This document shows positions 14,410-58,534 of a DNA stretch of 64,000 bases, one piece after another. Source of the DNA: a virus (Duplodnaviria; Caudoviricetes); the IMG/VR virus record IMGVR_UViG_3300021978_000001, positions 352,001 through 416,000 of that record; one strand, 5' to 3'. Position 1 is the stretch's first letter, and each line of letters opens with the position of its first letter. The notes under the pieces were generated by a model. That model made no database searches. It had not been told where the DNA came from and was given only the letters and a program-made list of their open reading frames with translations. Position numbers and translations under genes: made by a program.

Positions 14410-15179
14410 TTTATAACGACTCTGCTTCTTTCCTGGAATCCTTTCTCGAACGCTCGGCAGATCTCGCGGCGTTGCATGGCTTGAATGGCAGGAGGGCGGG
14501 ACCTAGCTCACGGCGCCAGGGAGCTGTCATGTGGAATCGTGAGGGCACGTGCTACGAGTTCAGGCTGTTGCTCAAAGCGACCAGCGCGACGGAAGGTGTA
14601 GCGTTGCTCGCAGGGTTCTTTGTGTTGCAGAACGACGACGGGGACCCGTTGGGTGCAATCCTCAATTTCACGCACAAGCAACAGATCGAAGAACGTTCCC
14701 TTACCGTGAAAGTGGTGCAAAACGATAGTCTTAATCCCGAGCTGTTTTATCAACAGCTCGGGTACCCTGACGAGTCCTTCTTTCTTCCGGCACTCCTCAA
14801 CCTTTTCGAGTCCATCGAGCCTTGCGCCTTTCGCCATGAAGGGCGTGTGTATCACTGGGAGGGGTTCGCGCCCGATTGGAGTGCTCTGAATCAACATGAA
14901 CCTTTGCTGGTCGAGATGGGCGGGGTGCGCCTCGACGAGGATGCCCTGGATCTCGGGCTCTTTCAGGAGAGCTTGTTTCGGGTGTACCACTTCGAGTATG
15001 AGGACCATGCGTTCTACTTCGCGCCGTGCGTGCGAAAGGAGATCGCGCCGATCTTTTTGAACATCGAGACCTTCCCGAGCATGCTCAGTCCTCGTGACCT
15101 CTTGCGTCGCTACCGTAAAGCGGTGGACACCTACGAGCTGCTTTCGCGCACGATCAACACCCAGGGATCTGCTTCATGA
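14406..15179 (+). CDS. Hypothetical protein, family A
   Basis: YHWEGFAP; YRKAVDTYELLSRTIN; close paralogue of next gene. Confidence 0.85.
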   Translation: MIYNDSASFLESFLERSADLAALHGLNGRRAGPSSRRQGAVMWNREGTCYEFRLLLKATSATEGVALLAGFFVLQNDDGDPLGAILNFTHKQQIEERSLTVKVVQNDSLNPELFYQQLGYPDESFFLPALLNLFESIEPCAFRHEGRVYHWEGFAPDWSALNQHEPLLVEMGGVRLDEDALDLGLFQESLFRVYHFEYEDHAFYFAPCVRKEIAPIFLNIETFPSMLSPRDLLRRYRKAVDTYELLSRTINTQGSAS

Positions 15180-15931
15180 TTTATGAAACCAAAGCAGACA
15201 TGCTTCGAGCCCTGCAAGAGCGTCTCGAAGATGCCTTGCCTCCTGGGCTCGATGTGCGCGGTTGGGAAGCCTCCATAAGCGTGACGGGTACCTGGAGCGC
15301 GTACAGGTTTTACCTGCGCGAATATCCCTTGAGCGCGACACAGGGACTCGCGCTCCTCTCAGGTACACTGGAGCATAATGAGCCCGGGGGTGGTTACATG
15401 GCAGACCACGCGCGGATAAGCCCTATTACTCACGAACAACAGTTGCTTGAGCGTCGTGTACAGGTGGACCCTGGGGGTCGTTACGGGTACAGTGGTGATC
15501 TCTACCATGAGCTGGGGTACGGGAGTGAGCGTGACCCCTCCCGCGCCGTGCCATTGATCATGCAAGCGTGGCGTGATCCTGTGGCTTACCGCGAAGGAGA
15601 GCGCGTGTTCTATTGGGCTGGCACCAATCCCTCCTGGGATGCTCTCGATCAGCATGAGCCTTTCCTGCGCGAGATGGGGGGCGAGCGCCTCGACGAGGAT
15701 GTGTGTGATCTGGGGGCTTTCTTCGAGTATGCGTTCAGGGTGTACCGCTTCACCACGCAAGCCTACGACTTCTGTTTCGTGTTGTGCGTGCTCCCTGTCG
15801 TGCGCCCCATGTTTCGTCTCGTCGAGGAAGGGCTCTGGCTTGAGCCTCGTGAGCAGCTCCAACGCTCGCGTCGCGCTGTGGAGCTTTACGAAACACTCAC
15901 CCGGACGATTTACCCAGGAGAGATGCCATGA
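15176..15931 (+). CDS. Hypothetical protein, family A
   Basis: FYWAGTNP; SRRAVELYETLTRTIY. Confidence 0.85.
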   Translation: MIYETKADMLRALQERLEDALPPGLDVRGWEASISVTGTWSAYRFYLREYPLSATQGLALLSGTLEHNEPGGGYMADHARISPITHEQQLLERRVQVDPGGRYGYSGDLYHELGYGSERDPSRAVPLIMQAWRDPVAYREGERVFYWAGTNPSWDALDQHEPFLREMGGERLDEDVCDLGAFFEYAFRVYRFTTQAYDFCFVLCVLPVVRPMFRLVEEGLWLEPREQLQRSRRAVELYETLTRTIYPGEMP

Positions 15932-16728
15932 CCCGTCAACCGAGGACCCCTGAAGAACGTCGCCTCGGAGAGGATCGTCTCTGGTTCTCGAACCATGGCG
16001 AGCTTCGCGTGTGGTTGGAAGAGGAGCTATGGTCCCTTGTCGAGGCGGAGATCTTACCCCTGGAAAAGGCACCGCAACGCACCGAGCATGATGTGACGTG
16101 GGGCGCGCGCCAGGAGTTTTTCCTGACCATGGGAGGAGGAGGCTTTCGATTCTATGAACATGCGTATCAAGCTCATTTCTACATGGAGTGGTGGGAAGAA
16201 CACTGTCCTCGCAGCGCAAGCCTTTACAGAAAACGTGACGCGACAAACCTCCTCGAAGAGCTTGGTCAGGCGCGTCAACAAGAGGATGGTGGGCGTGATC
16301 AGGTGACGCTCACGGACTGGTTCATGCTCGAAGATCCTGATTACTTGACGCACCTTCACGCCGTGTTCGACCACTTCGCCTACAAGCCTGTGGGCATCCG
16401 GGGAGGCACGGGGAAGCAGCTCGTCATTTGCAATGGCTTCGACCCCTTCGACATGAGCGCACACTTCACAGATCTTGAAGACAAACTCGGGTGGAGGGTC
16501 GTGCCCTCTTCGGATGATGACCTTTCCATCGTGCACTTCGAGCATGGCAAGGTGTTGATCCCTCATGATGCCCGGCTCACGCCTCTCATGCACTTCAATA
16601 CCACGGAACACTGCTACGACCCGCAAGAGATCCAAAAGGTACTTGACGGGCAGCGTAAAATGCTGCAACAATTCAGGCTGTACTTGAGGATGTATCGCGA
16701 CAGGCAGAACGTCAGAAAGAGTGTGTGA
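15928..16728 (+). CDS. Hypothetical protein, family A
   Basis: ICNGFDP; QRKMLQQFRLYLRMY; similar to next gene. Confidence 0.75.
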   Translation: MTRQPRTPEERRLGEDRLWFSNHGELRVWLEEELWSLVEAEILPLEKAPQRTEHDVTWGARQEFFLTMGGGGFRFYEHAYQAHFYMEWWEEHCPRSASLYRKRDATNLLEELGQARQQEDGGRDQVTLTDWFMLEDPDYLTHLHAVFDHFAYKPVGIRGGTGKQLVICNGFDPFDMSAHFTDLEDKLGWRVVPSSDDDLSIVHFEHGKVLIPHDARLTPLMHFNTTEHCYDPQEIQKVLDGQRKMLQQFRLYLRMYRDRQNVRKSV

Positions 16729-17450
16729 TGGAACGTCAATGGTTTGACACCAGGGAAGATCTGGTCGAGTGGATGGTCGCGCAACTGCGCGCGTTGGAAG
16801 ACCAGGGCGCCTTTTTGGACGTGCGCGTCGAGTATGAGGCGAAGCGCTCTTATGCCATAAAGTTGAATCGGTACTGGGATTTGTACATCACCTCACCATG
16901 GTTCGCGGGAGATTCACACATTCAGGGTATTTCGGTGTTCCTGGAGTGGAGCCATGCGGACCATTACGAAAGTCTGGGCACGCTCGAAGAGATCGAACGA
17001 CGCCTCGCGAATGACGTGTCCGCCTCCCTGCGCTACGAAGATGTTGCGGTGATCGCGCGTCACTTCAAGGATGTGCGATGTGGCGTGCGTGAGTATGAGC
17101 ACGAAGGGTTAAAGCATGTCGCGATCTGGAACGGCTTCTCGCCTTCGGATCGCGCACAGGATTTCGCGCTGCTCGAAGAGCTTTGGGGGTGGAAGTGCCG
17201 CCCCAGTGGGTATTGGTACAAGCGCGCCGATGTAGAGGGGTTAAGCCTGGATGTCCCTCGTGATGCCTTGCTTCCCTTGCGACTTACTTTGAGCGGTGGT
17301 CTTTCTTTCACGGACCCTGACGCGTTCGAGGCGCATCTCGGGAAACAGAGACGCGTTCTGGCGCAGTGGCGCACCTACAGGCGTATGGTGAATAGAAGGC
17401 AGGACACAGAAGCAGGAGAAGCAGATGTTGGAAGCAGTGTGGAACTTTGA
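16725..17450 (+). CDS. Hypothetical protein, family A
   Basis: IWNGFSP; QRRVLAQWRTYRRMV. Confidence 0.75.
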   Translation: MMERQWFDTREDLVEWMVAQLRALEDQGAFLDVRVEYEAKRSYAIKLNRYWDLYITSPWFAGDSHIQGISVFLEWSHADHYESLGTLEEIERRLANDVSASLRYEDVAVIARHFKDVRCGVREYEHEGLKHVAIWNGFSPSDRAQDFALLEELWGWKCRPSGYWYKRADVEGLSLDVPRDALLPLRLTLSGGLSFTDPDAFEAHLGKQRRVLAQWRTYRRMVNRRQDTEAGEADVGSSVEL

Positions 17451-17805
17451 ATTTACCTGGACAGACGGGATGCAGGTCGGGCTCGTGGACTTCCGACGGT
17501 CTCGCAAGCGACGAGTGCTCACCCTCTGGAACGAAGCTCGAACACAGAAGGTCGAGTCTGTCCTGGAGATCGAGACCAACGAAAGAGGTGAGTTCTCCTG
17601 GAAACTCAAGGAGATCAGTTGGACCAAGGATACTTGGGGGTGGGGACGCACGTTGCCTCGTGTACAGACCTACGAGCAGGCGCCCGACCTCTACCGGATG
17701 ATCGTGAGCGCGCTCGACCACTTCGATGACGTCGAGATCTGCTCGCAGATTCGCTTCGGGGATAGCTTACCAGCTCCGAAGCTCCAACCCACCGTGTTCA
17801 AGTAA
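17425..17805 (+). CDS. Hypothetical protein
   Basis: AGGAG RBS; tandem run. Confidence 0.65.
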   Translation: MLEAVWNFEFTWTDGMQVGLVDFRRSRKRRVLTLWNEARTQKVESVLEIETNERGEFSWKLKEISWTKDTWGWGRTLPRVQTYEQAPDLYRMIVSALDHFDDVEICSQIRFGDSLPAPKLQPTVFK

Positions 17806-17809
17806 GCCC

Positions 17810-18379
17810 ATGTTGATCAACAGCTTCATGCAAGACATCGGATACGCGCGCGTGATCTTCGATAACGTCGAGTGGTATTATGCGCGACACCACGGCAAGC
17901 TCGGGTTCACGCGCCATTATCCCGCGTGCAAAGAGCGCTTTCTACCTGGCATACAGGAACTCTTGCCCTCTCCTGCTCGGATGCATCACTACATGCCAGG
18001 GGAAAACGTCGAGGGGCTTAGTGTCTATGCAAGTTGGTATCCGAATGATGGTGCTCACGTTGCCCGGTCCAGCGCGGTGAAGGTGTCCGATATGCGCGCG
18101 TACCTCACGCGTATCGAATGTCAGGTAGGCTTTGGTAGTGCGCATGTGCACCCCTGTTTCCAGTGGACGACGATCAAGTTTGATGTCCCTGGTGATCTCG
18201 AAGGGTTGGGTGAGAGGCAAGAAGTCCTGTACCAACAGGCGCTCGTGTGGTATGCTTTGGGGGTCCAGGGCGGGCTCTTGTTGCAGGATTTGGATGAGGA
18301 GCAACGCGAGATCGCCATCGAAATGTGCCGGTATGTGTACCACAACCATGGCTTCGATCAGGGTGCCCCTTCATGTTAA
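17810..18379 (+). CDS. Hypothetical protein, family B (MLINSF)
   Basis: In-frame ATG at 17810 just after previous stop. Confidence 0.75.
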   Translation: MLINSFMQDIGYARVIFDNVEWYYARHHGKLGFTRHYPACKERFLPGIQELLPSPARMHHYMPGENVEGLSVYASWYPNDGAHVARSSAVKVSDMRAYLTRIECQVGFGSAHVHPCFQWTTIKFDVPGDLEGLGERQEVLYQQALVWYALGVQGGLLLQDLDEEQREIAIEMCRYVYHNHGFDQGAPSC

Positions 18380-18759
18380 TCAATGGCTTCATCACGCCGC
18401 TTCTGGTGCAGAACGTCAACAACTACCTGTGGTACATCGAGGATATACGGTTGCCTGTGTGTCTGGCTGTACAGGTAGCTGGTGATGCCCTCTTTGTGCC
18501 GCATGAGGATAGCGCGCTGCCGGGCTCACGTGTCATGCATCGCACCCTGTCATGCGTTTACCCGGAGGAGGGTGCGCGCGTCGCGTGGGTGTCCGAGATC
18601 TACACCCAGGACTATACACTCTATGCGCCTTTTGCGATTCGCGAGAGCCTGGTTCAGGGGATCGAGAAGGTAGAGGCAGAAGAGACGCGAGTGTGGTTGA
18701 GAGAGACCTTGCATTGGACGCAGCGCTGTGGCTTGTCAGGAGGTTCGACATGTTATTGA
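18373..18759 (+). CDS. Hypothetical protein, family B (MLINGF)
   Basis: In-frame ATG at 18373 overlapping previous stop. Confidence 0.75.
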   Translation: MLINGFITPLLVQNVNNYLWYIEDIRLPVCLAVQVAGDALFVPHEDSALPGSRVMHRTLSCVYPEEGARVAWVSEIYTQDYTLYAPFAIRESLVQGIEKVEAEETRVWLRETLHWTQRCGLSGGSTCY

Positions 18760-19523
18760 ATGTCTTTTACAAGACCCTGTACAACACCGCCTGGGATGGG
18801 ATGCTCGACGGCTGGCGTGTGCTCTTGATCGAAATCGAAGACTACTTCCTGTCTTTCATGCAGCGTCCCTGTGTCGAGGGTGAGATGGGCTACAGGGACC
18901 TCACGGTGATGCGTAGCCTCGGGGTATCCATCTTCACCAAGAGCACAGGAAGCCTCGTGCACTTGAGTCTACGGGGGCGCTTTATCGAACCTTGCCCGGG
19001 CTTTATGGAGGTACGCCTTCCTACGATGTATCGTGAGCGCGCCAAGGGCGCGTGGCCCAGCTTTATCGAAGAAAGAGAAGCCTCTATCCTCGACATCTTC
19101 TTTACCCCTGATGATCCTTACGCCTTCACCGTGCGTATCGTGGACCCCCCGAGCATCTTCCCTATCCCTGCCGGGATACCAGACGCCACCAAGCCGTGGA
19201 AGACCACGACGCGTGGTCATTACAAGGGAAGAATAGGAGGTCAAAACATCGAGCTGGTGTGGGTCGAGAGCGATCGACATTGGGAGCTTCGCTCCGTCAA
19301 ATATTCCGGGGCGTTCCAGGCGCAAGCCATGGCCTGGGAGGGGCTGCGAGAACCGACAACCCGGGCCATGTATCTCACCCTCTGTATGGCTTATGTCTCT
19401 CTTCCCAATCAATCCCAGGGGATGAAGGAGACGCGACGCGATGCTCTGGCGATGTTCAAGAGAGACTTCGAGGATTTCCAGACTGCGTTCAAGTTACTTG
19501 ACAAGCGCGAAGGGAGAACGTGA
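18750..19523 (+). CDS. Hypothetical protein, family B (MLLNVF)
   Basis: AGGAGG RBS before ATG 18750. Confidence 0.8.
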   Translation: MLLNVFYKTLYNTAWDGMLDGWRVLLIEIEDYFLSFMQRPCVEGEMGYRDLTVMRSLGVSIFTKSTGSLVHLSLRGRFIEPCPGFMEVRLPTMYRERAKGAWPSFIEEREASILDIFFTPDDPYAFTVRIVDPPSIFPIPAGIPDATKPWKTTTRGHYKGRIGGQNIELVWVESDRHWELRSVKYSGAFQAQAMAWEGLREPTTRAMYLTLCMAYVSLPNQSQGMKETRRDALAMFKRDFEDFQTAFKLLDKREGRT

Positions 19524-19524
19524 C

Positions 19525-20367
19525 ATGTTGTATAATGCATTTACCACCATGGGGGAGGTTCAGGTGCTCCGGCTTCATGCGGGAGGCTTCGCGTACAGGG
19601 GACGTTTTTACGAGGTCCAGGCTACGCGTACACCAGAGGACCCCATGCTCCTGCGCGTTCGCGTGAGCAAGGTGCTCTCTCCAGGGAATGCTAAGAGGTT
19701 GGATGCCCGCGAGAAGACACAGCGCTTGCTTCAACTCAAGCGCGCGCAGGACACCACGCGATTGGCACGAAGAGTCCACCACGCACGCGAAAAGGCGCTG
19801 CAAGGCACCCTGGATGCCAGGACCGTGCGTGGTAACACAGAGCGGCATATGTTCACCTTCTACCTTCGTTTACCTGGTTGGCTCGCGCAAACTGAATCGG
19901 AGTACCAACGGTGCTATGAGGTCGTCTGGAAGTGGATGATCCGTGGTATGCTCCGGCATCTCCCGAAGCACAAGGCGTACCTCGAAGGGTTGCTGCATGC
20001 GCAGCTCGCGTTCAAAGGCTCGTGGCGTCAACCCTGGGTAAACGCGAGAGCGTTTGCACCAAACCTTGCGGGTTCTACACGGGATCATCTGATCCTGACC
20101 ATCCCCGGCTCTGAACTTCCTGATGTCGTCCCCATGCGTCAACCCATGGGCGCTCTGTTCGCATCTTCGGTGGATATTCGCGGTGCACAAGTACCAGATG
20201 ACCTTTCGCAAGAGGAACTCGCGGTGATGCGTAGTTCGCTGGCTGAGTTTGGTCCTTCCATCCTGAACTCTTTCGTGAGCGTTTACCGCCAGGGGCAGCT
20301 AGTCGAGCACGTCTGGAGACTTGAGGGTGACGAGCAGGTTCAAGAACACGATCCAGAGGAGGAGTGA
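19525..20367 (+). CDS. Hypothetical protein, family B (MLYNAF)
   Basis: GGAG RBS; ATG 1 nt after previous stop. Confidence 0.8.
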   Translation: MLYNAFTTMGEVQVLRLHAGGFAYRGRFYEVQATRTPEDPMLLRVRVSKVLSPGNAKRLDAREKTQRLLQLKRAQDTTRLARRVHHAREKALQGTLDARTVRGNTERHMFTFYLRLPGWLAQTESEYQRCYEVVWKWMIRGMLRHLPKHKAYLEGLLHAQLAFKGSWRQPWVNARAFAPNLAGSTRDHLILTIPGSELPDVVPMRQPMGALFASSVDIRGAQVPDDLSQEELAVMRSSLAEFGPSILNSFVSVYRQGQLVEHVWRLEGDEQVQEHDPEEE

Positions 20368-20368
20368 G

Positions 20369-20866
20369 ATGCTCATTAATCTCATGACACCTCTGGGCAT
20401 TCGAGAAGCCCCGGTGCACGTACACCAGGATAGGCGTGACTACAGGTTTGTGGTCGAGCGGGGTGCGCCTGAAACTCCGCAGCTTTTCCTGGTCACATTC
20501 TCTGTCGAGTATGTTCGGGGAGCGATTGGAGCGTCCTGGTTGGGTTTCGCGAACATTCGCTTGCTCGCACCTCACGTGGATAGAGCACTGGCGCAAAAGT
20601 GGTTGGAGCGAGTCGAGGTGTTACTTGAGATAGGGGAGAGCATCGACATCGGGGGTAGACCCCTGCACTCACGTCATCACTGGAAACAAGCCCTGTTGCG
20701 TCACCTTCGCGATCAGTTCCTCGGTGAGGTCGATTACATGCCACCAGAGAGGGCCTCTCTGGCGCGCATGGTCGAAGTGCTCTTGTGGCATTACAAGACC
20801 ATGGGAGAATTGCCGCTCCCCTTGCCTCCCTCCAAAAAACCCTCCAGTCCATGGTGTCGCTCATGA
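20369..20866 (+). CDS. Hypothetical protein, family B (MLINLM)
   Basis: GGAGGAG RBS; ATG 1 nt after previous stop. Confidence 0.8.
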   Translation: MLINLMTPLGIREAPVHVHQDRRDYRFVVERGAPETPQLFLVTFSVEYVRGAIGASWLGFANIRLLAPHVDRALAQKWLERVEVLLEIGESIDIGGRPLHSRHHWKQALLRHLRDQFLGEVDYMPPERASLARMVEVLLWHYKTMGELPLPLPPSKKPSSPWCRS

Positions 20867-21504
20867 TTACACGCAGTCACAGCTTCAAGCAGATGATGTT
20901 CCTGGAGGGGCTACTTACCGAACTACGAACGGGGAAGCTCGTGTTTGAATCGAGCGATGGTGCGGTGTCTCTGATCTATACAAGATCTATTCGACCAAAC
21001 TATCATCTCCAGGTCGTGCTCGACCTCCAGCTCCTCACGCCGGTCTCGATCGTCTATCGTGAGATCCCTGAAGAGACGTGGTGTTCGACGTTTGCGGTGA
21101 GGTTTCAGTATCACCCAGAAGATAGCCCTCATACCGAGAGCTTTGTCTTCAAGCGTCTGGAGCATGAAGCACCATCGGCGTACATGAACCTGGCAGTGTA
21201 CGCGGAAAAGGTCTTGCGTGAGCATGCAAGAGCGCTCGAACGCGAGGAGAGTGACGCGCAGCATGACTTCGGAGAGTGGACGCCCTTCTACCTCGCTTGT
21301 GCGATGGCTGAACGCGTGCCCTCAACGCCTCTCAAGGTGCAGGAGATGGCTTATGCCGCATGGCGACAGCATAACAGTCTCGTGGACTCCTTCCGAACCT
21401 TGATGAACCTGGAGGTCGCGACGAAGCATTGTTACTGGGGACATTGGGGGTTGGGGACTCTGTACTTTGTAGAAGAGGAGGAGAGTGATGCCCCTGTTGA
21501 ATGA
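20863..21504 (+). CDS. Hypothetical protein
   Basis: ATGA overlap, in frame with ORF 20785..21504. Confidence 0.65.
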   Translation: MITRSHSFKQMMFLEGLLTELRTGKLVFESSDGAVSLIYTRSIRPNYHLQVVLDLQLLTPVSIVYREIPEETWCSTFAVRFQYHPEDSPHTESFVFKRLEHEAPSAYMNLAVYAEKVLREHARALEREESDAQHDFGEWTPFYLACAMAERVPSTPLKVQEMAYAAWRQHNSLVDSFRTLMNLEVATKHCYWGHWGLGTLYFVEEEESDAPVE

Positions 21505-22126
21505 CTTCATGAAACCACGTCTCGACGCGGAGCGGGATGAACATCTCAAGGCGCTTACAAGTGTGTGTTCGGCCCGCGTCAAGAAGCTCGAAAAATACCT
21601 CCTCGCGACGTATCCTGTCGCAGAACGTGTAGACGCTTCGCGCGCCGGACGCTTCATGCTCACGCGCTACACCCCCTTCGAGTGGTGGGCGTGCTTTCTG
21701 GCGGCTCACCACTTACCCTCAATGATGCCCATGCCCCTGGCCGCGCAGCCGATGAATGTGACCATGCCGTACCAGATCATGTCCACAGGGGAGGACCCCT
21801 ACTCCTATCACTGGGTGACCGTGCCGACGCGTCTGGTGTGGCTACTGCGACCCGGGTGGTATTACGTCATCGAGTTGGACATGAGAGGACACAGGCGCGC
21901 GCAGATCTGCAAGGATGCTTTCGATTGGTGGGATGAGGATTGGCGTGACCCGCATCCTTCGGACTGGAAGACGCGAAGGTATGCGCGCGTACCTCAGACG
22001 TTCGTGCGCCCAGGGGAGATCTCTTCCGAGAGTACCCTGGCACTCTTGAGGGCTTATCAAAAGGGGCATCATACCTTGATGAAACGCTTGCTCGGAGACA
22101 CGGTGGAGGTGTTGCTAGGGGTGTGA
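21485..22126 (+). CDS. Hypothetical protein, family B (MPLLNDF)
   Basis: GAGGAGGAG RBS. Confidence 0.75.
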   Translation: MMPLLNDFMKPRLDAERDEHLKALTSVCSARVKKLEKYLLATYPVAERVDASRAGRFMLTRYTPFEWWACFLAAHHLPSMMPMPLAAQPMNVTMPYQIMSTGEDPYSYHWVTVPTRLVWLLRPGWYYVIELDMRGHRRAQICKDAFDWWDEDWRDPHPSDWKTRRYARVPQTFVRPGEISSESTLALLRAYQKGHHTLMKRLLGDTVEVLLGV

Positions 22127-22138
22127 TCCTGTGTTACC

Positions 22139-22864
22139 ATGGATTTGGTAGATGTGTACCATTTTCCCAGGTATGTCATGTTGATCAATTATTGCAAACG
22201 CATCGAACAGGCGACCACCGAGGAGCGCGCGATCCTGGATCGCAGAGACGCGCGCTTCGGGATGGCCCGAGCTGAGATCACAAACGCGCCCATACTCCCG
22301 GCGCTGTTGCCCCCCGAACGAGTACCGCACGAGCGAAGAGATCGGGCGGTTTACTTCTATTGGTGGTTTGTGCCCGAGGACTTCCCGGAAGAGGAATCCC
22401 TCTGGGAGCCTTCAGGATATGCGGAAGCGAACTTCCTGGGCACGGTGGGGCGTCGGGTCGAGTGCCTGGAATATCATGGGACTGTGAGTTGGAAAGCACA
22501 TCTTTTGCACATGCTGCATACGTTGTGCCCGAAGCTCGCTTACGCTCCTTCTCCTCTTGCCATCGACCTGAATATACCCCATGTGTTCGATGCACGCACC
22601 GAGATCATGTTGACCTGGCAAGCAGACGCGAGTAGCACGCATGTGATCTTGACGCGTGAGGGAGGCTCCTGTCAGTGGGAGGTGACTTACATCGACCCAG
22701 ATCACAGACTGGAGACCTTGTTCACGTCGCGGTTGCACCCCTGGAACCTCCAGATCACAGATCAGCCTCGATTCCAGTACAGCACACACTTTAACCGGGC
22801 ACGTCTCGCTTATATGGCCTTCTATGACCGAGGCCCGCGTTCTCTGCAACTTCCCGGAGCTTGA
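22139..22864 (+). CDS. Hypothetical protein
   Basis: 241 aa ORF in tandem run. Confidence 0.7.
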   Translation: MDLVDVYHFPRYVMLINYCKRIEQATTEERAILDRRDARFGMARAEITNAPILPALLPPERVPHERRDRAVYFYWWFVPEDFPEEESLWEPSGYAEANFLGTVGRRVECLEYHGTVSWKAHLLHMLHTLCPKLAYAPSPLAIDLNIPHVFDARTEIMLTWQADASSTHVILTREGGSCQWEVTYIDPDHRLETLFTSRLHPWNLQITDQPRFQYSTHFNRARLAYMAFYDRGPRSLQLPGA

Positions 22865-52275: not shown

Positions 52276-52917
52276 ATGAGGGACAACGACAGCTACATCT
52301 ATCGCAAAGGCACCACGCCCAACACGCGTATCGCGATCAGCCAGAAGAACAAGCTCTACTCGGTGGCGCGCGGCCAGACTGCGTTTAGCCAGGTCGGGCT
52401 CGTGTCGAGCTTCGGGTTGAGCGAATCGCGCGCTGTGGACGAGGTGCGTGGGATGGGTTACGGTGATCAGATCGCAGAACTCGTGCCCGGAGTCACCGGC
52501 GCCATGAGCATCTCGGTCAGCCGCACCTTGCTCTATCTCGCAAACATCTACCAGGCCATGGGATACGCTGCGGGCATTGACGGCCTCGTGCGAAGCCTCA
52601 AGCACCACCAGTGGCCCTTTGACCTCAAGCAAGAGCTGGTGTTCTCGCGCATCGCCACCAACTCGCAGAACAACCCCAAGCTCACGGTCCCCTCTTCGGA
52701 TGGGGTCAACGAGGCACTCCTCGTGTTCTTCGAGGCTTGCTGGATGGAGTCCTACTCCGCCAACTACGCTTCGGACGCGGCGATGATCTCGGAAGACGTG
52801 GGCATCAAGGCTACCGACGTGATCGACGGTACCTCGACCTACGGCGAGCTTGCTTCCGATGCAGAGTCCACGGGTAACAACCCGTTCTCCGAGATCGGTT
52901 CGCTTCGCTACGGCTAA
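52276..52917 (+). CDS. Contractile tail tube protein (T4 gp19-like fold)
   Basis: AAGGAG RBS; VRGMGYGD..ELVPG, F.ACWM.SYS and I.EDV.I.ATD pattern typical of myovirus/eCIS tube proteins. Confidence 0.75.
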   Translation: MRDNDSYIYRKGTTPNTRIAISQKNKLYSVARGQTAFSQVGLVSSFGLSESRAVDEVRGMGYGDQIAELVPGVTGAMSISVSRTLLYLANIYQAMGYAAGIDGLVRSLKHHQWPFDLKQELVFSRIATNSQNNPKLTVPSSDGVNEALLVFFEACWMESYSANYASDAAMISEDVGIKATDVIDGTSTYGELASDAESTGNNPFSEIGSLRYG

Positions 52918-52932
52918 TCCGTCGCTTTGACG

Positions 52933-52977
52933 TAAAAAAGCCCGCTCTCCTACAAAGAGAGCGGGCTTTTCTTTTTT
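52933..52977. terminator. Bidirectional rho-independent terminator
   Basis: AAAAGCCCGCTCTC (52936-52949) - CTACAAA - GAGAGCGGGCTTTT (52957-52970), A/T tracts on both sides. Confidence 0.9.
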
Positions 52978-53002
52978 CGGGGATGTTTGCGTGGTAACGA
53001 AT

Positions 53003-53031
53003 CGGACCATCCCCGCGCATGCGGGGAAACC
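53003..53031 (-). CRISPR. Solitary type I-E-like CRISPR repeat
   Basis: CGGACCATCCCCGCGCATGCGGGGAAACC, 27/29 identical to the array repeat; no second repeat nearby. Confidence 0.85.
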
Positions 53032-53121
53032 TTTGATACAACCTGTCACACCTTACAACACCGAACTTCGCGTTCCTGTACCGAGTCAAAGGGTACCTCG
53101 ACTTGACACTACCTGTCAAGT
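53032..53121 (-). promoter_or_regulatory. Truncated leader copy with promoter TTGACA-N18-TACCCT
   Basis: Shares TGTACCGA..C.AA.GGTACCTC...TGTCAAGT with the other two leaders; repeat-proximal part differs. Confidence 0.8.
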
Positions 53122-53334
53122 GTTATTCGAGGCTCTTCTCCTCACTATCATCTCTTTCCCTGAGATCAAGCGCAAGACCGAATCTGCGACGGTGCGGCGA
53201 CGGCCATCATCGAAGCAGACATGCGCGCCGTTGTCATCATCCCCGAGAAGTGTTCCCATGCCGTACTCGGGGTGAAGTACGCGATCTCCGCGAAACCACC
53301 AAGTTCTTTGTACGAGCGTCGTGTCTTTTGTCAT
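53116..53334 (-). CDS. Small SH3-like beta-barrel protein
   Basis: GDRVLHPEYGMGTL...VCFDDG; AAGGA RBS; TGA stop lies inside the TTGACA -35 box. Confidence 0.65.
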   Translation of the reverse strand: MTKDTTLVQRTWWFRGDRVLHPEYGMGTLLGDDDNGAHVCFDDGRRRTVADSVLRLISGKEMIVRRRASNNT

Positions 53335-53345
53335 GGCGCTTCCTT

Positions 53346-53603
53346 TTATGCTGGTCGAAAGTTCCCTACCGCCCACCGTAGCAGGCGTCCCATTGCCTGA
53401 ACACTCTCATCTGAGCTTGCGAGCAACCTCGTAGCGGCTTCAGTAGCGCGCTGCTCTGCATCCCCCGAGGTGCCCTCGAAGGCATCCCTCACAGCGCGCT
53501 TGACGCTTTCTGGGACGTCATTGGCGCGCTCCACAAGGTCGAGACCTTGCGTAGGATTTGCAGCCAACGCGTCGGCGTAAAATACCATCGTTGTTCGTGC
53601 CAT
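53346..53603 (-). CDS. 85-aa helical protein directly downstream of CRISPR array
   Basis: GAGGA RBS lies inside the terminal degenerate repeat. Confidence 0.65.
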   Translation of the reverse strand: MARTTMVFYADALAANPTQGLDLVERANDVPESVKRAVRDAFEGTSGDAEQRATEAATRLLASSDESVQAMGRLLRWAVGNFRPA

Positions 53604-53605
53604 TT

Positions 53606-53817
53606 TATCCTCGCCCCGCACACGCGGGGAACACTGGTCAATGTCTGAGCGCACGATCTCAGTGATCGGACCATCCCCGCGCACGCGGGGAACACGGTGA
53701 GGGCTGGAGCCGTCACGAGGTGGACATCGGACCATCCCCGCACGCGCGGGGAACACATCTGGTCCCAGGTCTCGGGTGTCCAGTTCACCGGACCATCCCC
53801 GCGCACGCGGGGAACAC
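53606..53817 (-). CRISPR. Type I-E-like mini-array: 4 repeats, 3 spacers of 32 nt
   Basis: Repeats at 53606 (degenerate), 53667, 53728, 53789; minus-strand consensus GTGTTCCCCGC-N4-GCGGGGATGGTCCG. Confidence 0.95.
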
Positions 53818-53934
53818 TCTTCAAATGTCCAGTTCCGTAAGTCCTCGGATTCTTTACAGAATCCTCGAACCCTCGCGAACCCGCTTCCCTGTACCGACTC
53901 GAAAGGTACCTCGACTTGACAGGTCGTGTCAAGT
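53818..53934 (-). promoter_or_regulatory. CRISPR leader with promoter TTGACA-N18-TACCTT
   Basis: Near-identical to 56653..56767; inverted repeats GGATTC-N6-GAATCC and ACTTGACA-N5-TGTCAAGT. Confidence 0.85.
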
Positions 53935-53935
53935 G

Positions 53936-54187
53936 TTATTCGACGACTTTTCCATCACTCGCAGGGATGAACACCCCCGGCCCGCGTTCGAGCACGGCGA
54001 AAAACCCCTGCTCGCCATTATGGACCCCCCTGTGCGCGGGATGGTTACGGAAAGCGACGCGTCGGCCTTTCGAGCCATCCACGGTCACGTCGATGCGGCA
54101 TTTGGTGCCAGGTCCGATTTGGGCCATGTACGTGTCGGGGTCGATGATTTTGTGGCCGTAGGTGTTCGTGCCGTCTTCGTTCGTCAT
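53936..54187 (-). CDS. Small hypothetical protein
   Basis: GAGGA RBS; own promoter at 54227..54255. Confidence 0.65.
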   Translation of the reverse strand: MTNEDGTNTYGHKIIDPDTYMAQIGPGTKCRIDVTVDGSKGRRVAFRNHPAHRGVHNGEQGFFAVLERGPGVFIPASDGKVVE

Positions 54188-54226
54188 AGCATTCCTCTCT
54201 TGATGGTGAGTTCACGTTACGCTTTA

Positions 54227-54255
54227 TCTATACCACAAGAGGGACAGGCCGTAAA
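54227..54255 (-). promoter_or_regulatory. Promoter TTTACG-N17-TATAGA
   Basis: Minus strand, TGTGG before -10. Confidence 0.6.
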
Positions 54256-54258
54256 GAA

Positions 54259-54747
54259 TCAATCTCCAGGCAAGAGGGAGTGACTCGGCACATCCTTGAC
54301 ACCGAGCAAGGAAGGGAGGAAGGCGAGCGCTTCTTCGATCGTGGGGAAGATGAGGTCTGCGGCTTCACGGATGAACGCGTGATCCATGCAATGCCCATCC
54401 GTCAGCCCCGCGATCACGACCAGCGTGTGCTCTTGACGCGAGGCCCACGCGATCTCGAAGGTGGTCCCGAGCGAGCGCGAGGTGGCGCCGGTGAGATCCG
54501 CGAGCAGGACATCGGCTTGCGCGACCATCCAGGAGTCCCGCCCGAAGATGGCGCGGTCATTGGAGATGGGGTCTTTGTAGCCCTTGGCCTTGGCTTCCCC
54601 TTGCCCGAGCAAGTGCTCCTTACCGAGCATCGGATGCAGGACATGGAAACCCATCGCCTTGAGGACGGTCCCGCGCTCGTGGAAGTGGTTGTAAGCGTCG
54701 TCGAGGTCGAGGCCCGTGATCGGTCCGGCTGCGTAAATGGTGGTCAT
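54259..54747 (-). CDS. Nucleoside 2-deoxyribosyltransferase-like protein
   Basis: IYAAGPI, F.VLHP, D..MV..ADVLLA, SLGTTFEIAWA. Confidence 0.8.
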   Translation of the reverse strand: MTTIYAAGPITGLDLDDAYNHFHERGTVLKAMGFHVLHPMLGKEHLLGQGEAKAKGYKDPISNDRAIFGRDSWMVAQADVLLADLTGATSRSLGTTFEIAWASRQEHTLVVIAGLTDGHCMDHAFIREAADLIFPTIEEALAFLPSLLGVKDVPSHSLLPGD

Positions 54748-54870
54748 GGTGTGCTACCTGTTGGTGACCCTGGGGAGGGTATCTCTCTTGTACCTCGAAT
54801 GCTCCGGCCTGTCCAGTAAGCTGTGATATTTCCCTTGTAATGTGGGCTCTTTGACCCATGAGGAGGCGCC

Positions 54871-55245
54871 ATGGCTTCGGTTCGAGAAATCCTGCACACG
54901 TATCTTGGGATGAACGTCTCGGGGAAACTCCGTGATGCCTTGATCGACATGTTGAGCTACAAGTCCCTCCCTTCCTGGGAGGATTGGCAAACATGGTACC
55001 TCAATACAGTCGTGGAACACCTGGTTATCTTGTTGCCGGGTGCCACAGGGGACGGTCACGAAATCACGTTCACGCACTCTGAACACGGCTGGGTTCACCT
55101 GGCCTTTTCGTTTCGCACGGGTACCCAGACGCTTTGCGTGTCGATCCGAACCTCGAATCACCATGTGTGTTTGTATGAGGAAGACCCAAACCTGTTGAGT
55201 CTTCTGGTCGTGCGCATTCACGAGACCCTGAGAGATCTATCATGA
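54871..55245 (+). CDS. Hypothetical protein
   Basis: GAGGAGG RBS. Confidence 0.7.
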   Translation: MASVREILHTYLGMNVSGKLRDALIDMLSYKSLPSWEDWQTWYLNTVVEHLVILLPGATGDGHEITFTHSEHGWVHLAFSFRTGTQTLCVSIRTSNHHVCLYEEDPNLLSLLVVRIHETLRDLS

Positions 55246-55853
55246 CACTCGACGAACTCAAGACCACCTTGCTCGCCATGGGTGTTCAACACCCCGAAGT
55301 CAAGCTCCAGTTGCGCGCGGTGATGGATACGCTCTCGACAGGTGTCTTCGATCCCTCCCGTATCGCACGCACGAGGCGTGTGGCCGCGATCCCCAAGAAG
55401 TACGAGCATCTCGACTTCACGCCACCCAAGGACGTGCAGGAGGCCGCAGGGCAGGGTCTCGAACTGCGTCAGGAGCAAGAGGGCGATAAGGCGGGGTTGA
55501 CCAATGAAGAGGCGAGCGATCAGGGCATCGGGTCTGGTGTGCAGCGCGCGGTCAACCTCAAGAACGGGACCAAGCTCGAACCTGACACCATCCGGCAGAT
55601 GGATCGGTTCTTCAAGCGCTTCGCGTCTCTTATCGAGAAGGCGCGTCGTCTCACCAAGAAAGAGGAGATCCTCAAGTCCAATATGCATATCAGTGATCTG
55701 CTCTGGGGAGGCGCGCCCGGTGAGAAGTGGGTCACCAAGATGATCCGCGAGATGGATAAGGCGGATGAGGCAGAGAAGAAAAAGGAGAGCGCCCTCGCAC
55801 GTCGCGTCGCTTCTGTTTACCTTATGGCGCGAGGCGTGGCTCAGGGTCATTGA
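55242..55853 (-). CDS. Phage protein with TPP..V..AA..GL...GVQRA..L...TI..M..FF.R...LLWGG module
   Basis: Module recalled from phage head-associated proteins (unverified); C-terminal RRVASVYL. Confidence 0.6.
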
Positions 55854-56193
55854 GCGGTCGCACGCGCTCCAGCTTCACGTCATCCTGGTGCACGAGTACG
55901 CGCTGTCCTTCCTGGCGTTGGATCTCCCAGCACGCCCATTGCACATCCTTGTAGATGGATTCACACAGGTTCTTGACCTGGTTATAGGCTTCCTTGCCCT
56001 CCTGATACCAGAGACGGTCCATCGAATCCGAATCGAAGAGAAGATAGGTACGCCTCTCTTCGGGCTGAAACCCGTGCGCCTTGTATGCTGCGTCCGGCGT
56101 ATCATGCTCGGTTAGATGAATCGTGAGCTTGGTTTGTGCCAGCCCATCCTCCTGTTGCTTTATCGTACCCATTTTCACACTGAGCCATGTCAT
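55822..56193 (-). CDS. 123-aa protein directly downstream of CRISPR array
   Basis: AAGGA RBS; ATG 14 nt after terminal repeat. Confidence 0.65.
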   Translation of the reverse strand: MTWLSVKMGTIKQQEDGLAQTKLTIHLTEHDTPDAAYKAHGFQPEERRTYLLFDSDSMDRLWYQEGKEAYNQVKNLCESIYKDVQWACWEIQRQEGQRVLVHQDDVKLERVRPLNDPEPRLAP

Positions 56194-56207
56194 GGTTGTT
56201 TCCTTCT

Positions 56208-56652
56208 GGGGCTATCCCCGCGCATGCGGGGAATGTCGTTTCGCGCGTAAACAGGGCATCGAGCCATCCCCACAGATGTGGGGAACATAGGAGGCGAGCG
56301 CCAACATGAGACCAGATCCTCGGACCATCCCCGCACATGCGGGGAAAACATGTCCATATTCTCACCAATGAGTGAGGGCGAGCCATCCCCGCATGCGCGG
56401 GGAACACGGGTATACCCGGTATAGGAGGTATTCCTGGAATAGGGCCATCCCCGCATGCGCGGGGAACACAAAGAGTGGTGCGTGCGCGGTTCCAGACCCA
56501 CCGGACCATCCCCGCACGCGCGGGGAACACGACAGCAGCGCCCACACGGGCATCACACGCCCCGGACCATCCCCGCGCATGCGGGGAACACTCCGTCAAT
56601 GAGGTCAGCATCCGCCCATATTGCGGACCATCCCCGCGCATGCGGGGAACAC
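56208..56652 (-). CRISPR. Type I-E-like array: 8 repeats, 7 spacers (23, 32, 29, 33, 32, 32, 32 nt in ascending coordinates)
   Basis: Repeats at 56208, 56260, 56321, 56379, 56441, 56502, 56563, 56624; degeneracy increases away from the leader. Confidence 0.95.
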
Positions 56653-56767
56653 TCTTCAAATGTTCAGTTCCGTAAGTCCTCGGATTCCTTAAAGAATCCT
56701 CAGACCCTTCCGAACCCGGTTCTCTGTACCGACTCGAAAGGTACCTCAACAGGCCAAACCCTGTCAA
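56653..56767 (-). promoter_or_regulatory. CRISPR leader with promoter TTGACA-N18-TACCTT
   Basis: 34/35 nt identical to the other leader next to the repeat. Confidence 0.85.
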
Positions 56768-56845
56768 GTATGTTTTTTCTCCAGTGGTATTCTTCTTGTG
56801 GCGTGAGCTTTACAGGAATGACTGTCTCTCACGCGAGTTATCATC

Positions 56846-58534
56846 ATGCTACCAAAGATCACCCCCAACCTCGAACAGCGCCTCAAGCACGAGGTGTGCG
56901 AGGTCGCGCGCCAGGGCTTGATGCAAGTCCCTTCCAAATCCCCCAACCGCATGCTTTCCAAGCTCGCAAAGCACCTTGTCGGCAAGGTCGATCTCCCTGC
57001 GGGCGCGTTGAGCCAACAGGAAGCGTACCGCTTCGCCATGGAGCTGCTCGGGCAATGCCGCGTCGCCTTGACCGCACATGATGTCAAGAGCGCGGTCAAG
57101 GAAGTCACCGGGGACGAAAACCCCCTCGTGGATACCTCGACCGTCCAGCGTATCGCTGCGGCACTCCAGAAAGGATGCGAAGGCATGCGTGATGACGCGG
57201 AACGTGGTGCTCAGGGCGCCTTGCGTACCGTGACCAAGCTGCTTGTCCGCGATATGGCGCTCGAAGAATGGTCCGCCATGCAAGTCAGCGATGCCATGGT
57301 CCGTGATATGCTGATCACGCTCCCGATGGCATCCGATCAGATCGCAGGATTCCTTTCGACCTATGTGTCCCGCGCCGCGAGCATTCGGCTCGTGCAAGCG
57401 CGTAAGGTCGCGCGCGCCTTCGCCATGAAGGCTGCTTGCGTGAGCTTGACAGAAAGGACTGCATGCGAGGGCGGGAACTGTGCTTGCTCGGGCGCCTGCG
57501 CTTGCGCATGTGAGGGCTACGCGAATCAGGATGCTTGTGCGTGTGCCTCGGTGACGTCGGGCATCACGATCGCCAATGCAGAAGACTTCCCAAAGAGCAC
57601 CCAGGTCGCGATGAAGCGTCTCAAGAAGATCAATGAAGATCTCGAAATGCTCTCGACCAAGATCGAAAAGCTCGAAGATCAGGGCGTGGATGCCTCCAAG
57701 CTGCATGGGAAGCGCAATGACCTCCAGGGAGAGTACGACCGCACGGTGCGTCTCTTGGAAGGCTTCGGCGTCAAGGTCGCAAAGAACTATCCACCCGAAG
57801 TCGAACGCTACGTCGAGGAGCACAAGGCGCAAGGCATGCCTGTCGGTAAGGCATGGGCCATCGCCTGGTCGCGCTATTGCAAGTACAAGAACCCAGGCAG
57901 CGAGCATTGCAAGGGGAAGGATTACTTCCCGGGGCGACGCTCCGCGCAGCTCCCGCGCCGTCAACCTCGTGAAGCGGGAAAGGACGACGCCAGGATGTTC
58001 AACATGGACCCCACGCGCTACACCCGTGAAGAGCGGCGTGAGATCTTGAGGGAGCGCCCCTGGCTGCATCCCCGCAACCCGAGCGCGCTCGACTATGCCA
58101 TGGATGCCTTGCGCAAGCCTCTGGCGAACTGGCAAGAGGGCGGTTCCGGGAAAGGCGCGGTATTCGCGGCATACAATGCGTTGCATGAGGACCAGAAGAA
58201 AGCGCTGGCCATGGCAAACGCCAAGGTGATGCCTTCGAGTACAGTGGCGTTCCGCTCCAGCATGAACGGTAAGACGTTCCCCTCGTCGATGAAGGGGCAA
58301 TCGTTGCATGTCGAGATCGAACCTGGCATGGCGCGGCTCGGACCCAACCATGTCCGCGCTTACCAGGTCACGCCACGCGAGGTGATGATTCACCCGGACA
58401 TCCCCGGGTCTCCGCTCGGCAAGGGTGTGTGGAAGTGGGAGCGCGAGATGATCCTGATGCCGGACGCGAACCCCAAGCGTCTTTCCGATGCACAGACCGC
58501 AAAACTTCTCGATTCGATCGCCAGGAGAGGCTGA
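56846..58534 (+). CDS. Large mosaic protein: Cys/Ala-rich linker, ChaB-like segment, possible C-terminal ADP-ribosyltransferase-like domain
   Basis: CACSGACACAC; GMPVGKAWAIAWSRY; AFRS...QSL...YQVTPREV...WEREMIL. Confidence 0.55.
   Translation: MLPKITPNLEQRLKHEVCEVARQGLMQVPSKSPNRMLSKLAKHLVGKVDLPAGALSQQEAYRFAMELLGQCRVALTAHDVKSAVKEVTGDENPLVDTSTVQRIAAALQKGCEGMRDDAERGAQGALRTVTKLLVRDMALEEWSAMQVSDAMVRDMLITLPMASDQIAGFLSTYVSRAASIRLVQARKVARAFAMKAACVSLTERTACEGGNCACSGACACACEGYANQDACACASVTSGITIANAEDFPKSTQVAMKRLKKINEDLEMLSTKIEKLEDQGVDASKLHGKRNDLQGEYDRTVRLLEGFGVKVAKNYPPEVERYVEEHKAQGMPVGKAWAIAWSRYCKYKNPGSEHCKGKDYFPGRRSAQLPRRQPREAGKDDARMFNMDPTRYTREERREILRERPWLHPRNPSALDYAMDALRKPLANWQEGGSGKGAVFAAYNALHEDQKKALAMANAKVMPSSTVAFRSSMNGKTFPSSMKGQSLHVEIEPGMARLGPNHVRAYQVTPREVMIHPDIPGSPLGKGVWKWEREMILMPDANPKRLSDAQTAKLLDSIARRG

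Follow-up and report, generated by a model that had tools for sequence, protein, structure and literature searches.

Outlying CRISPR units of a 437-kb phage as probable distal arrays of its own type I-E system

Three CRISPR units in a stretch of phage DNA that holds no cas gene raise the question of whose interference machinery they serve. The stretch analysed (the window, 64 kb) comes from a virus record of 437,490 bp, in which it spans bases 352001-416000; the record has terminal repeats and is rated 100% complete. A sequence-only reading of the window had described type I-E repeats, 13 in all and grouped as 1, 4 and 8, behind a duplicated shared leader, and had taken the arrays to be cas-less and to borrow the Cascade of the host. 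The repeat count was confirmed in the sequence, where 13 copies of a 29-nt repeat form units of one (W1), four (W2) and eight (W3).

Searches of the whole genome with eight Cas models placed every match outside the 64-kb window, and the observation that the window itself holds no cas gene therefore stands. The matches lie at 13.7-22.3 kb of the same phage genome, ∼42 kb from the W1-W3 units, and make up a type I-E interference set: Cas3 (core, E 4.5e-59; HD domain, E 6.7e-32), Cas7e (E 7.5e-51), Cas5e (E 1.5e-38), Cas6e (E 2.7e-27), and Cse1 (E 5.7e-16) and Cse2 (E 1.1e-7), the last two carried by one 726-aa frame. All of these genes are intact and on the minus strand, all matches exceed the curated cut-offs with no internal stops, and the phage Cas3 has both HD and helicase domains. 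The term cas-less cannot be kept, since a full I-E set elsewhere in the genome is what the sequence-only reading had itself named as evidence against it. For Cas1 and Cas2, no match to PF01867, PF09707, TIGR03638 or TIGR01873 was obtained in the whole genome, and for TIGR03638 and TIGR01873 this was so even at E≤1. Because only Cas1 and Cas2 are missing, a host would be needed at most for spacer insertion and not for Cascade.

The same repeat is present near the phage cas genes, which suggests that the window units belong, as distal arrays, to the system that the phage itself encodes. We give a probability of roughly 0.7 to the reading that all three are outlying, self-promoted arrays of a phage-owned, crRNA-guided type I-E system.

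The repeats have the properties that this reading predicts. Their RNA sense is the minus strand, with the consensus GTGTTCCCCGC-N4-GCGGGGATGGTCCG and a period of 61 nt in the window arrays. When up to 8 mismatches were allowed, the genome contained 66 copies in one orientation, with 57 distinct sequences, and this repeat also forms about a dozen further small arrays outside the window. The 6-bp stem is paired in all 13 window copies, one of which has a compensatory G-C to A-U change; across the genome, 340 of the 342 cells are paired, and 13 double changes are compensatory. This pattern argues that the hairpin is under selection, as expected of a Cas6e substrate. Within the 8-nt handle (ATGGTCCG), repeat positions 22-25 and 28 hardly vary among the genome copies, and position 29 is the most variable base (G32 C22 T9 A3), varying spacer by spacer; in the window, the last repeat base is a G before 9 of the 10 spacers. 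Repeats far from the leader are degenerate in the window arrays. The window units thus combine a GC-rich tetraloop hairpin, an 8-nt handle, unlike spacers of ∼32 nt and cognate cas genes, as type I-E arrays do; the adaptation genes (cas1 and cas2) were not found in the phage genome.

All three units are on the minus strand. Array W3 (56208..56652) has 8 repeats and 7 spacers of 32, 32, 32, 33, 29, 32 and 23 nt, the three leader-proximal spacers being canonical (32 nt) and the distal four degenerate (33, 29, 32 and 23 nt). Its putative promoter-leader (56653..56770), a copy of a module that we call L1, has a −35 box TTGACA (56762-56767), an 18-nt gap and a −10-like box TACCTT (56738-56743), followed by a conserved GGATTCT-N4-AGAATCC hairpin and a leader-proximal motif, ACATTTGAAGAG, that abuts the first repeat. 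Array W2 (53606..53817) has 4 repeats and three 32-nt spacers behind a second L1 copy (53818..53940), in which the palindrome ACTTGACA-N5-TGTCAAGT encloses the −35 box (53927-53932), with the −10-like box at 53903-53908. W1 is a solitary repeat (53003..53031) with an intact hairpin and the canonical handle. Its leader (53032..53125) joins an L1-type putative promoter, with the −35 box (53114-53119) in a palindrome, to a short proximal motif of a second type, L2 (GTGTGACAGGTTGTATCAAA). The repeat is followed by 32 nt (52971..53002), the length of a spacer, which lead directly into a bidirectional intrinsic terminator (52936..52970; 14-bp stem) predicted to serve both a plus-strand 213-aa gene and the W1 transcript. 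As first reported, all 10 array spacers differ and W2 and W3 have none in common; seven are exactly 32 nt, and those of other lengths lie at the trailer end.

The duplicated leader was also borne out, by a 146-nt duplication (88% identity; 53789-53934 and 56624-56769) and a second one of 78 nt (79% identity; 53069-53146 and 53882-53959). Five copies of L1, including the W2 and W3 leaders, are present in the genome and are 75-83% identical over ∼135 nt, with conserved blocks. In the 437 kb there are 7 occurrences of the motif TTGACA-N16-GGTACC[CT]TT, all of them on the minus strand, with CRISPR units following 6 of them. The L2 motif of the W1 leader is common to the cas-adjacent arrays at 13.6, 17.0, 18.1, 23.3 and 110.7 kb. 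From these patterns we infer that L1 is a dedicated promoter-leader module of CRISPR units; its promoter function is put no higher because a strict sigma-70 scan called no promoter at L1, where the −10 box is weak.

Comparison with five near-identical sister strains from other marine metagenomes (flanking genes 93-98% identical) showed arrays at the same sites with nearly all spacers replaced, mostly toward the leader end. The W3 spacers shared with sisters are distal only: the last, of 23 nt, is shared with strains L122 and L123, and the fourth matches L124 at 31 of 32 aligned positions. Because L124 shares spacer 4 yet differs distal to it, turnover was not purely polar. The W2 spacers differ in L019, L020, L021 and L124, and one strain (run X2) shares only the distal one. 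The sister loci hold 31 unique spacers, of which two are shared with the arrays of this phage and none of the others is present in its genome. In type I-E systems the last repeat base varies with the spacer, being PAM-derived and brought in by Cas1-Cas2 (PMC3338789), and filling in trans by host Cas1/2e of a system that lacks adaptation genes and is borne on a mobile element has been demonstrated (bioRxiv 10.1101/2023.06.23.546257). Spacer turnover together with the variable last repeat base points to Cas1-Cas2 acting in trans on the phage arrays.

The turnover could instead result from recombination mediated by the repeats, the partner being other phage arrays or host arrays, and not from Cas1-Cas2 integration. 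The leaders of W1 and, in strain L122, of W2 are mosaics that join the L1 promoter to the L2 proximal segment, repeat variants are common to different arrays, and some of the strain differences are leader-distal. In addition, W2 repeats 1 and 3 are identical and repeat 2 differs from them and matches W3 repeat 3, a repeat-loop pattern that would not be expected if the first repeat were simply duplicated step by step and that hints at inter-array recombination. However, reshuffling creates no novel spacers, and 31 unique ones were seen in the sisters. Variation of base 29 from spacer to spacer also marks integration, although recombination with host arrays could mimic it. We consider recombination in place of integration unlikely.

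The arrays are also physically joined to small ORFs. ORF123 (55822..56193, minus strand) encodes an orphan 123-aa protein whose Shine-Dalgarno sequence and ATG lie 14 nt past the W3 terminal repeat; it has no family matches, and its homologues form a single 90%-identity cluster, all from sister strains. A repeat hairpin lies ∼20 nt upstream of its ATG in 5 of 5 strains, as CCCCGC/GCGGGG or the compensated CCCCAC/GTGGGG, so that the hairpin-Shine-Dalgarno-ATG junction is kept in five strains though the arrays upstream differ. ORF85 (53346..53603, minus strand), a small acidic helical protein of no assigned family, starts 2 nt past the W2 terminal repeat, which keeps only its hairpin and whose 3′ part, CGAGGATA, provides the ORF85 Shine-Dalgarno sequence. 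An extra 88-aa ORF within the array of one sister strain has the same hairpin-Shine-Dalgarno-ATG order, and a terminator scan found none between the arrays and ORF123 or ORF85. The downstream small ORFs come and go among near-identical strains; in L019, for example, ORF85 is truncated or absent. ORF83 and ORF162 (53936..54747, minus strand) are backbone genes between W3 and W2, with ORF83 ending at the putative W2 promoter. ORF162 is nucleoside 2-deoxyribosyltransferase-like (PF05014, E 1e-8), and its homologue is kept in more distant relatives without arrays at the site. The stop codon of ORF72 (53116..53334, minus strand) overlaps the W1 −35 box. ORF72 is a candidate stand-alone Tudor-like domain; as a lead only, its predicted features resemble CarD/TRCF-RID, the PcrA/UvrD Tudor domain or DUF3553-like proteins (feature score 0.91, TM about 0.6), and Pfam gave no match at E≤0.01.

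The locus had been read as a multi-part system of guides, decoy and coupled proteins. Its coupling part is supported, in that arrays are physically joined to the small ORFs that follow them, and the idea of a designed set is not. Nor is the proposed grading into 1, 4 and 8 repeats, because array sizes and spacers vary freely between strains and W1 is missing in four sisters.

The junctions allow the possibility that the repeats are mainly Cas6e-dependent processing or regulatory devices in 5′ UTRs, acting on mRNA 5′ ends, stability or translation, with guides secondary. This would account for terminal hairpins placed 2-22 nt upstream of the Shine-Dalgarno sequence or ATG of ORF85 and ORF123, for the compensatory stem changes at the conserved ORF123 junction and for the repetition of the layout at the 88-aa ORF. 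However, processing needs just one hairpin, whereas 32-nt spacers, a 61-nt period, conserved handles and fast turnover at the leader end are typical of arrays that make guides. Both roles may coexist, and we give only a small chance to the view that the 5′-UTR role is the main one.

We also weighed whether the arrays use host Cascade in the manner of virus-borne mini-arrays. The window alone, without a cas gene, would allow this, the repeat family occurs broadly among bacteria (94 loci, many phyla) so that a compatible I-E host is conceivable, and these crRNAs might in principle also fit a host Cascade. Borrowing is nevertheless unnecessary for a phage that encodes full Cascade, Cas6e and Cas3 beside the same repeat, and we now regard the borrowed Cascade of the sequence-only reading as improbable.

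W1 might instead be a Racr-like RNA anti-CRISPR that titrates the Cas6e or Cas7e of a host's I-E system. In its layout, with one repeat and no second after it, a putative promoter of its own and a terminator, W1 matches solitary repeat units (PMC10651486; PMC11656645). Such a decoy would, however, poison the phage's own system, since phage Cas6e and Cascade use the same repeat. The W1 handle is moreover perfect and followed by exactly 32 nt, as a guide would be; for these 32 nt, the phage genome gave no other match of ≥12 nt, and the sister-strain loci compared gave none. Nor does W1 behave as a conserved function: its cassette (52976-53146) is absent from L019-L022, where ∼385 nt with a 114-aa ORF are found instead, and the unit is a strain-specific insertion in place of this ORF. 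We judge the anti-CRISPR reading very improbable, and the designed decoy was likewise rejected for what reads as a minimal array with at most one guide-like RNA.

Searches for protospacers gave none for the window spacers among the sequences covered: the 53 spacers of this phage and 31 spacers of its sisters had no target in the 437-kb genome or in ∼200 kb of relatives' loci, and in the phage's own genome no spacer matched outside its array. Among the sequencing runs listed with this stretch, none was an RNA run. That the arrays are what is left of an acquired CRISPR locus, now decaying and without function, is barely credible. Adaptation genes and targets were not found, and there is degeneracy in the distal repeats and spacers, but intact cas genes, hairpins kept up by compensatory changes, canonical leader-proximal units and active spacer turnover between strains speak against decay.

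Under the preferred reading, that of distal arrays of a phage-owned system, each unit would be transcribed on the minus strand from its L1-type promoter-leader copy, and phage Cas6e would cleave at the base of each repeat hairpin to give 61-nt crRNAs starting AUGGUCCG. These would load phage Cascade and recruit phage Cas3 to destroy matching DNA, most probably that of a mobile element or phage that shares the cell as a competitor. Array transcripts would continue into the small accessory ORFs, and because the ribosome binding sites of these ORFs lie directly behind the last hairpin, the Cas6e cut would also set mRNA 5′ ends. New spacers would go in next to the leader through a Cas1-Cas2 of type I-E acting in trans, presumably supplied by the host since the phage is without its own. 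W1 would be a recently created minimal array (promoter, leader and one repeat) that yields at most one terminator-ended, guide-like RNA. A bolder version, which we put forward tentatively, is that a portable promoter-leader seeds arrays throughout the genome, that W1 is a newborn array seen in one strain, that host Cas1-Cas2 fills such arrays, and that Cas6e frees both guides and the 5′ ends of accessory genes, tying their expression to CRISPR. If true, a virus-owned I-E system updates its guides without updating enzymes of its own and spreads array cassettes in its genome, with the repeat hairpin as the joint that links guide RNAs to mRNAs. The strain series (one genome and five sisters) makes the origin of the spacers, the identity of the inserter and Cas6e control of downstream genes testable. 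Apparently cas-less arrays call for a whole-genome check before a host-dependent reading is adopted.

The literature searched gave no description of dispersed I-E arrays with a repeated leader and fused ORFs, and each known system shares part of this arrangement. Cas-less mini-arrays and Racr units (PMC11656645; Camara-Wilpert et al. 2023, PMC10651486) are likewise viral and consist of small arrays or of a single repeat that has a promoter of its own. Those viruses lack cognate cas genes and exploit or inhibit a host system, whereas this phage has its own Cas proteins; mini-array spacers mostly match related viruses, whereas the own and sister spacers here match none of the relatives' loci compared (∼200 kb). 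Plasmid type IV-A3 systems (Benz et al., bioRxiv 10.1101/2023.06.23.546257) also combine arrays and an effector with variable spacers and no adaptation genes, and acquire spacers via host Cas1/2e, with the G of the acquisition motif carried into the array. In that case the in-trans step is experimental, whereas for this phage-borne I-E system strain comparison suggests it. The phage shares with E. coli K-12 I-E the 29-nt repeat, the CCCCGC/GCGGGG stem with a tetraloop, the 8-nt handle ending CCG, 32-nt spacers and the variable last repeat base; it differs in lacking cas1-cas2, in repeats that are heterogeneous within an array, in many separate, self-promoted small arrays and in their predicted transcriptional joining to protein genes. 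The closest likeness is to what Al-Shayeb et al. (2020, PMC7162821) described in huge phages, CRISPR-Cas systems that have effector genes, no Cas1, Cas2 or Cas4 and compact arrays with a reported median of six repeats, and for which a role against competing phages or host genes was proposed. This phage likewise has a genome >200 kb (437 kb), effector genes, no Cas1 or Cas2 by search and compact arrays. It differs in being I-E with complete Cascade and Cas3, in its many dispersed arrays, among them the window set ∼42 kb from the cas genes, and in a five-copy promoter-leader module and fusion to downstream ORFs. CRISPR-Cas without adaptation genes is already known from huge phages, and the distal I-E arrays described here fit that kind.

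On the minus strand of the window, a 29-nt repeat occurs 13 times between positions 53003 and 56652, with a spacing of 61 nt. The copies form three units: W1 (53003-53031), with one repeat; W2 (53606-53817), with four repeats and three 32-nt spacers; and W3 (56208-56652), with eight repeats and seven spacers. No two of the ten spacers are alike, and the sequence confirmed the earlier description of 13 I-E-type repeats in units of 1, 4 and 8 with a duplicated leader and ten different spacers. Read on the minus strand, the repeat consensus is GTGTTCCCCGC-N4-GCGGGGATGGTCCG; judged by this sequence the repeat is of type I-E, with a 6-bp GC stem, a tetraloop and an 8-nt handle. Stem pairing is intact in all 13 window copies, one of which shows a compensatory G-C to A-U change. 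The whole genome contains 66 copies of the repeat (≤8 mismatches), all in one orientation, with ∼12 more small arrays outside the window (13-31 kb, 110 kb and 127 kb) and several copies that stand alone. Across these repeats the tetraloop is nearly free to vary, yet it is nearly always purine-pyrimidine-purine-pyrimidine. The possibility that the loop variants are hairpin inversions was rejected, since transitions alone account for the variation (13 of the 16 possible RYRY loops were present genome-wide). Adjacent repeats within one array are often unlike each other, which is unusual among CRISPR arrays.

The window spans bases 352001-416000 of a single virus record of 437,490 bp, from a hydrothermal-vent sample, that has terminal repeats and is rated complete. 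A whole-genome profile search identified intact genes for Cse2 (genome 13696-13968, in a 726-aa frame shared with Cse1), Cse1 (14407-15816), Cas5e (15982-16566), Cas6e (17075-17713), Cas7e (18289-19527), the Cas3 helicase core (20354-21412) and the Cas3 HD domain (21620-22306), all on the minus strand, above the curated cut-offs and free of internal stops. These genes lie ∼42 kb from the window arrays, counted across the terminal-repeat junction. The sequence-only reading had taken the arrays to be cas-less; that view is refuted because I-E cas genes sit elsewhere in the same phage genome, the observation that it had itself named as decisive. Four models for Cas1 and Cas2, two of them applied at E≤1, gave no match in the whole genome, and the adaptation module is the sole missing part of the phage's I-E system.

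The locus is also present on contigs from other marine metagenomes, which allowed the arrays to be compared between sister strains. The flanking DNA of these strains is 93-98% identical, the 213-aa flanking protein is identical across four loci (L019-L022), and the product of ORF123 is 87-100% identical in five (L120-L124). The sister-strain arrays occupy the same sites in the same orientation and differ in nearly all spacers. The spacers in common are leader-distal: the 23-nt last spacer of W3, with its terminal repeat, recurs in L122 and L123, and the distal W2 spacer recurs in a sister-strain run (X2). W3 spacer 4 matches a spacer of L124 at 31 of 32 aligned positions. Because the common spacers are leader-distal, turnover is mainly at the leader end, along with a degree of internal loss or recombination. 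One spacer (L020:4385-4416 and L023:8002-8033) is kept with a single mismatch between loci whose flanking gene has just 78% DNA identity; this suggests a long-kept guide, and it had no target in IMG/VR or the JGI metagenomes.

Among the handle bases of the repeat, position 29 varies far more than any other (G32, C22, T9, A3) and differs from spacer to spacer, and positions 22-25 and 28 are nearly fixed. In the E. coli I-E system, the last repeat base derives from the PAM and is carried in along with the spacer, and insertion of new units takes place beside the leader (PMC3338789). A plasmid system that lacks adaptation genes is filled in trans by host Cas1/2e, with the same G carried in (bioRxiv 10.1101/2023.06.23.546257). 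The leader-end turnover, the variable base 29 and these two precedents lead us to infer spacer insertion in trans by a type I-E Cas1-Cas2. Nine of the ten window spacers are preceded by G, so an AAG-like motif is predicted. In more distant relatives (77-92% identity in the 213-aa protein), no repeat lies within 10 kb of the gene for this protein, and therefore the array cassettes are additions in the present sub-lineage.

The leaders of W2 and W3, ∼120 nt each and upstream in the RNA sense, agree at 88% over a 146-nt stretch that takes in the first repeat, and at 82% when aligned with MAFFT, and the W1 leader has the promoter part alone in common with them (79% over 78 nt). Genome-wide, the leaders sort into two kinds. 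The first, L1, is present in five copies with 75-83% pairwise identity, belonging to W2, W3 and three arrays whose ends are at 26.3, 29.1 and 31.2 kb of the genome. It has a perfect TTGACA separated from TACCTT by an 18-nt gap; it also carries a 5′ stem (GGTACC...GGTAC), a conserved hairpin (GGATTCT-N4-AGAATCC) and, adjoining the first repeat, ACATTTGAAGAG. The second, L2, is a short motif, GTGTGACA(A/G)G(A/T)TGTCTCAGA, that precedes the cas-adjacent arrays and the array at 110.7 kb. The W1 leader joins the promoter of L1 to the proximal segment of L2, and the same mosaic precedes W2 of one sister strain. The 437-kb genome has seven copies of the pattern TTGACA-N16-GGTACC[CT]TT, on the minus strand only, with CRISPR units directly behind six of the seven. 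The seventh copy, TTGACA-N16-GGTACCCTT (genome 120961-120987), lies in a tRNA region with no array directly behind it. A generic sigma-70 scan of 52700-57000 called no site, and missed the leader promoters because the −10 box is weak. We regard the leader modules as putative promoters, assigned from conservation only. Transcripts of the arrays would yield a predicted crRNA of 61 nt beginning AUGGUCCG.

W1 consists of the promoter, a short leader, one perfect repeat, exactly 32 nt and a strong bidirectional terminator that is common to the convergent 213-aa gene. In four sister strains the cassette (52976-53146) is missing, and its place is taken by ∼385 nt that include a 114-aa ORF. The cassette carries a copy of the final codons of the gene that lies upstream of W2's promoter, and so W1 arose via duplication and recombination of leader modules. 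In our reading, W1 is a minimal array of recent formation that gives at most one guide-like RNA. That it is instead a decoy (Racr) is possible but unlikely, because its repeat is the one used by the phage's own Cas6e and Cascade. The 32 nt has no match of at least 12 nt in the phage genome, on which ground a self-regulatory role of the W1 RNA was rejected, and none in the relatives' loci.

No minus-strand terminator was found between the arrays and the next ORF. In W2, the hairpin of the terminal repeat is retained, the last eight bases of that repeat are CGAGGATA, and AA and the ATG of ORF85 follow; the terminal repeat of W3 is followed by 14 nt containing AGAAGGA and then the ATG of ORF123. 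Homologues of ORF123 are confined to the sister strains, and a repeat hairpin ∼20 nt before its ATG is kept in five of five strains despite differing upstream arrays, as CCCCGC/GCGGGG or the compensated CCCCAC/GTGGGG. In two sister strains (L120:307-720 and L121:64-475), the W3-equivalent array is interrupted by an 88-aa ORF, which has a hairpin-SD-ATG junction of its own and divides the array into a six-repeat and a two-repeat part. Strain L019 has at most a truncated ORF85, and ORF124 is missing in three strains.

The small ORFs around the arrays (ORF72, ORF85, ORF83, ORF124 and ORF123) had no match in Pfam, PHROGs, PADLOC or NCBIfam, and ORF123 and ORF85 had no usable match in the ESM Atlas. 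ORF72 (53116-53334, minus strand) gave an ESM Atlas feature score of 0.91 with a TM of ∼0.6. As a lead only, this suggests a Tudor-like RNA-polymerase-interacting domain standing on its own (CarD/TRCF RID, PcrA/UvrD Tudor, DUF3553), and the phage could use this small protein to modulate host RNA polymerase. ORF162 (54259-54747, minus strand) is nucleoside 2-deoxyribosyltransferase-like (PF05014, E 1e-8) and adjoins the 213-aa gene even in more distant, array-free relatives (L012-L014). The product of the 213-aa gene itself (52276-52917, plus strand) belongs to no Pfam or PHROG family. A search at E≤0.001 gave 643 homologues; many of them sit on contigs of 300-456 kb, so the gene seems to be part of the core of a large huge-phage clade. 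In relatives at 77% identity (L015:10725-12932, also L016 and L017), the 225-aa homologue is followed by a 735-aa intein-splicing and LAGLIDADG protein.

Searches for spacer targets gave none in the phage's own genome, in IMG/VR (three spacer patterns, flipped sixth bases tolerated), in the JGI metagenomes (two patterns), or when window spacers were compared with sister-strain loci and sister-strain spacers with the phage genome. Both window arrays and two sister-strain arrays gave repeat-to-repeat matches only against GenBank phages, and IMG/VR searches for relatives via the flanking 562-aa protein, the leader motif and Cas7e returned zero matches. The repeat pattern occurs in 94 loci from many phyla, among them Actinomycetota, Gemmatimonadota, Burkholderiales and Acidobacteriota, and the repeat family is thus not diagnostic of the host. 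Host-array spacers did not match the phage; a 29/32 match in a Thalassobaculaceae MAG was treated as chance, as it sits in an ankyrin-repeat coding region outside any array. No RNA runs holding the window stretch were listed. Clusters of I-E-like repeats that lack annotation are present in Streptomyces phages of ∼37 kb, among them Piccadilly, Ignacio and Vondra (GenBank OL455886.1, ∼34.6-34.8 kb, and 15 related records); these clusters may be true cas-less phage mini-arrays.

The present phage set is not of the cas-less mini-array sort (reviewed in PMC11656645). Huge-phage CRISPR-Cas loci with compact arrays and no adaptation genes are a described class (PMC7162821), to which the window arrays and the cas locus belong. 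In contrast to the described huge-phage cases, the present phage has many dispersed arrays, a multi-copy portable promoter-leader and a conserved hairpin-to-RBS junction, and it shows evidence of ongoing leader-end turnover without a Cas1-Cas2 of its own.
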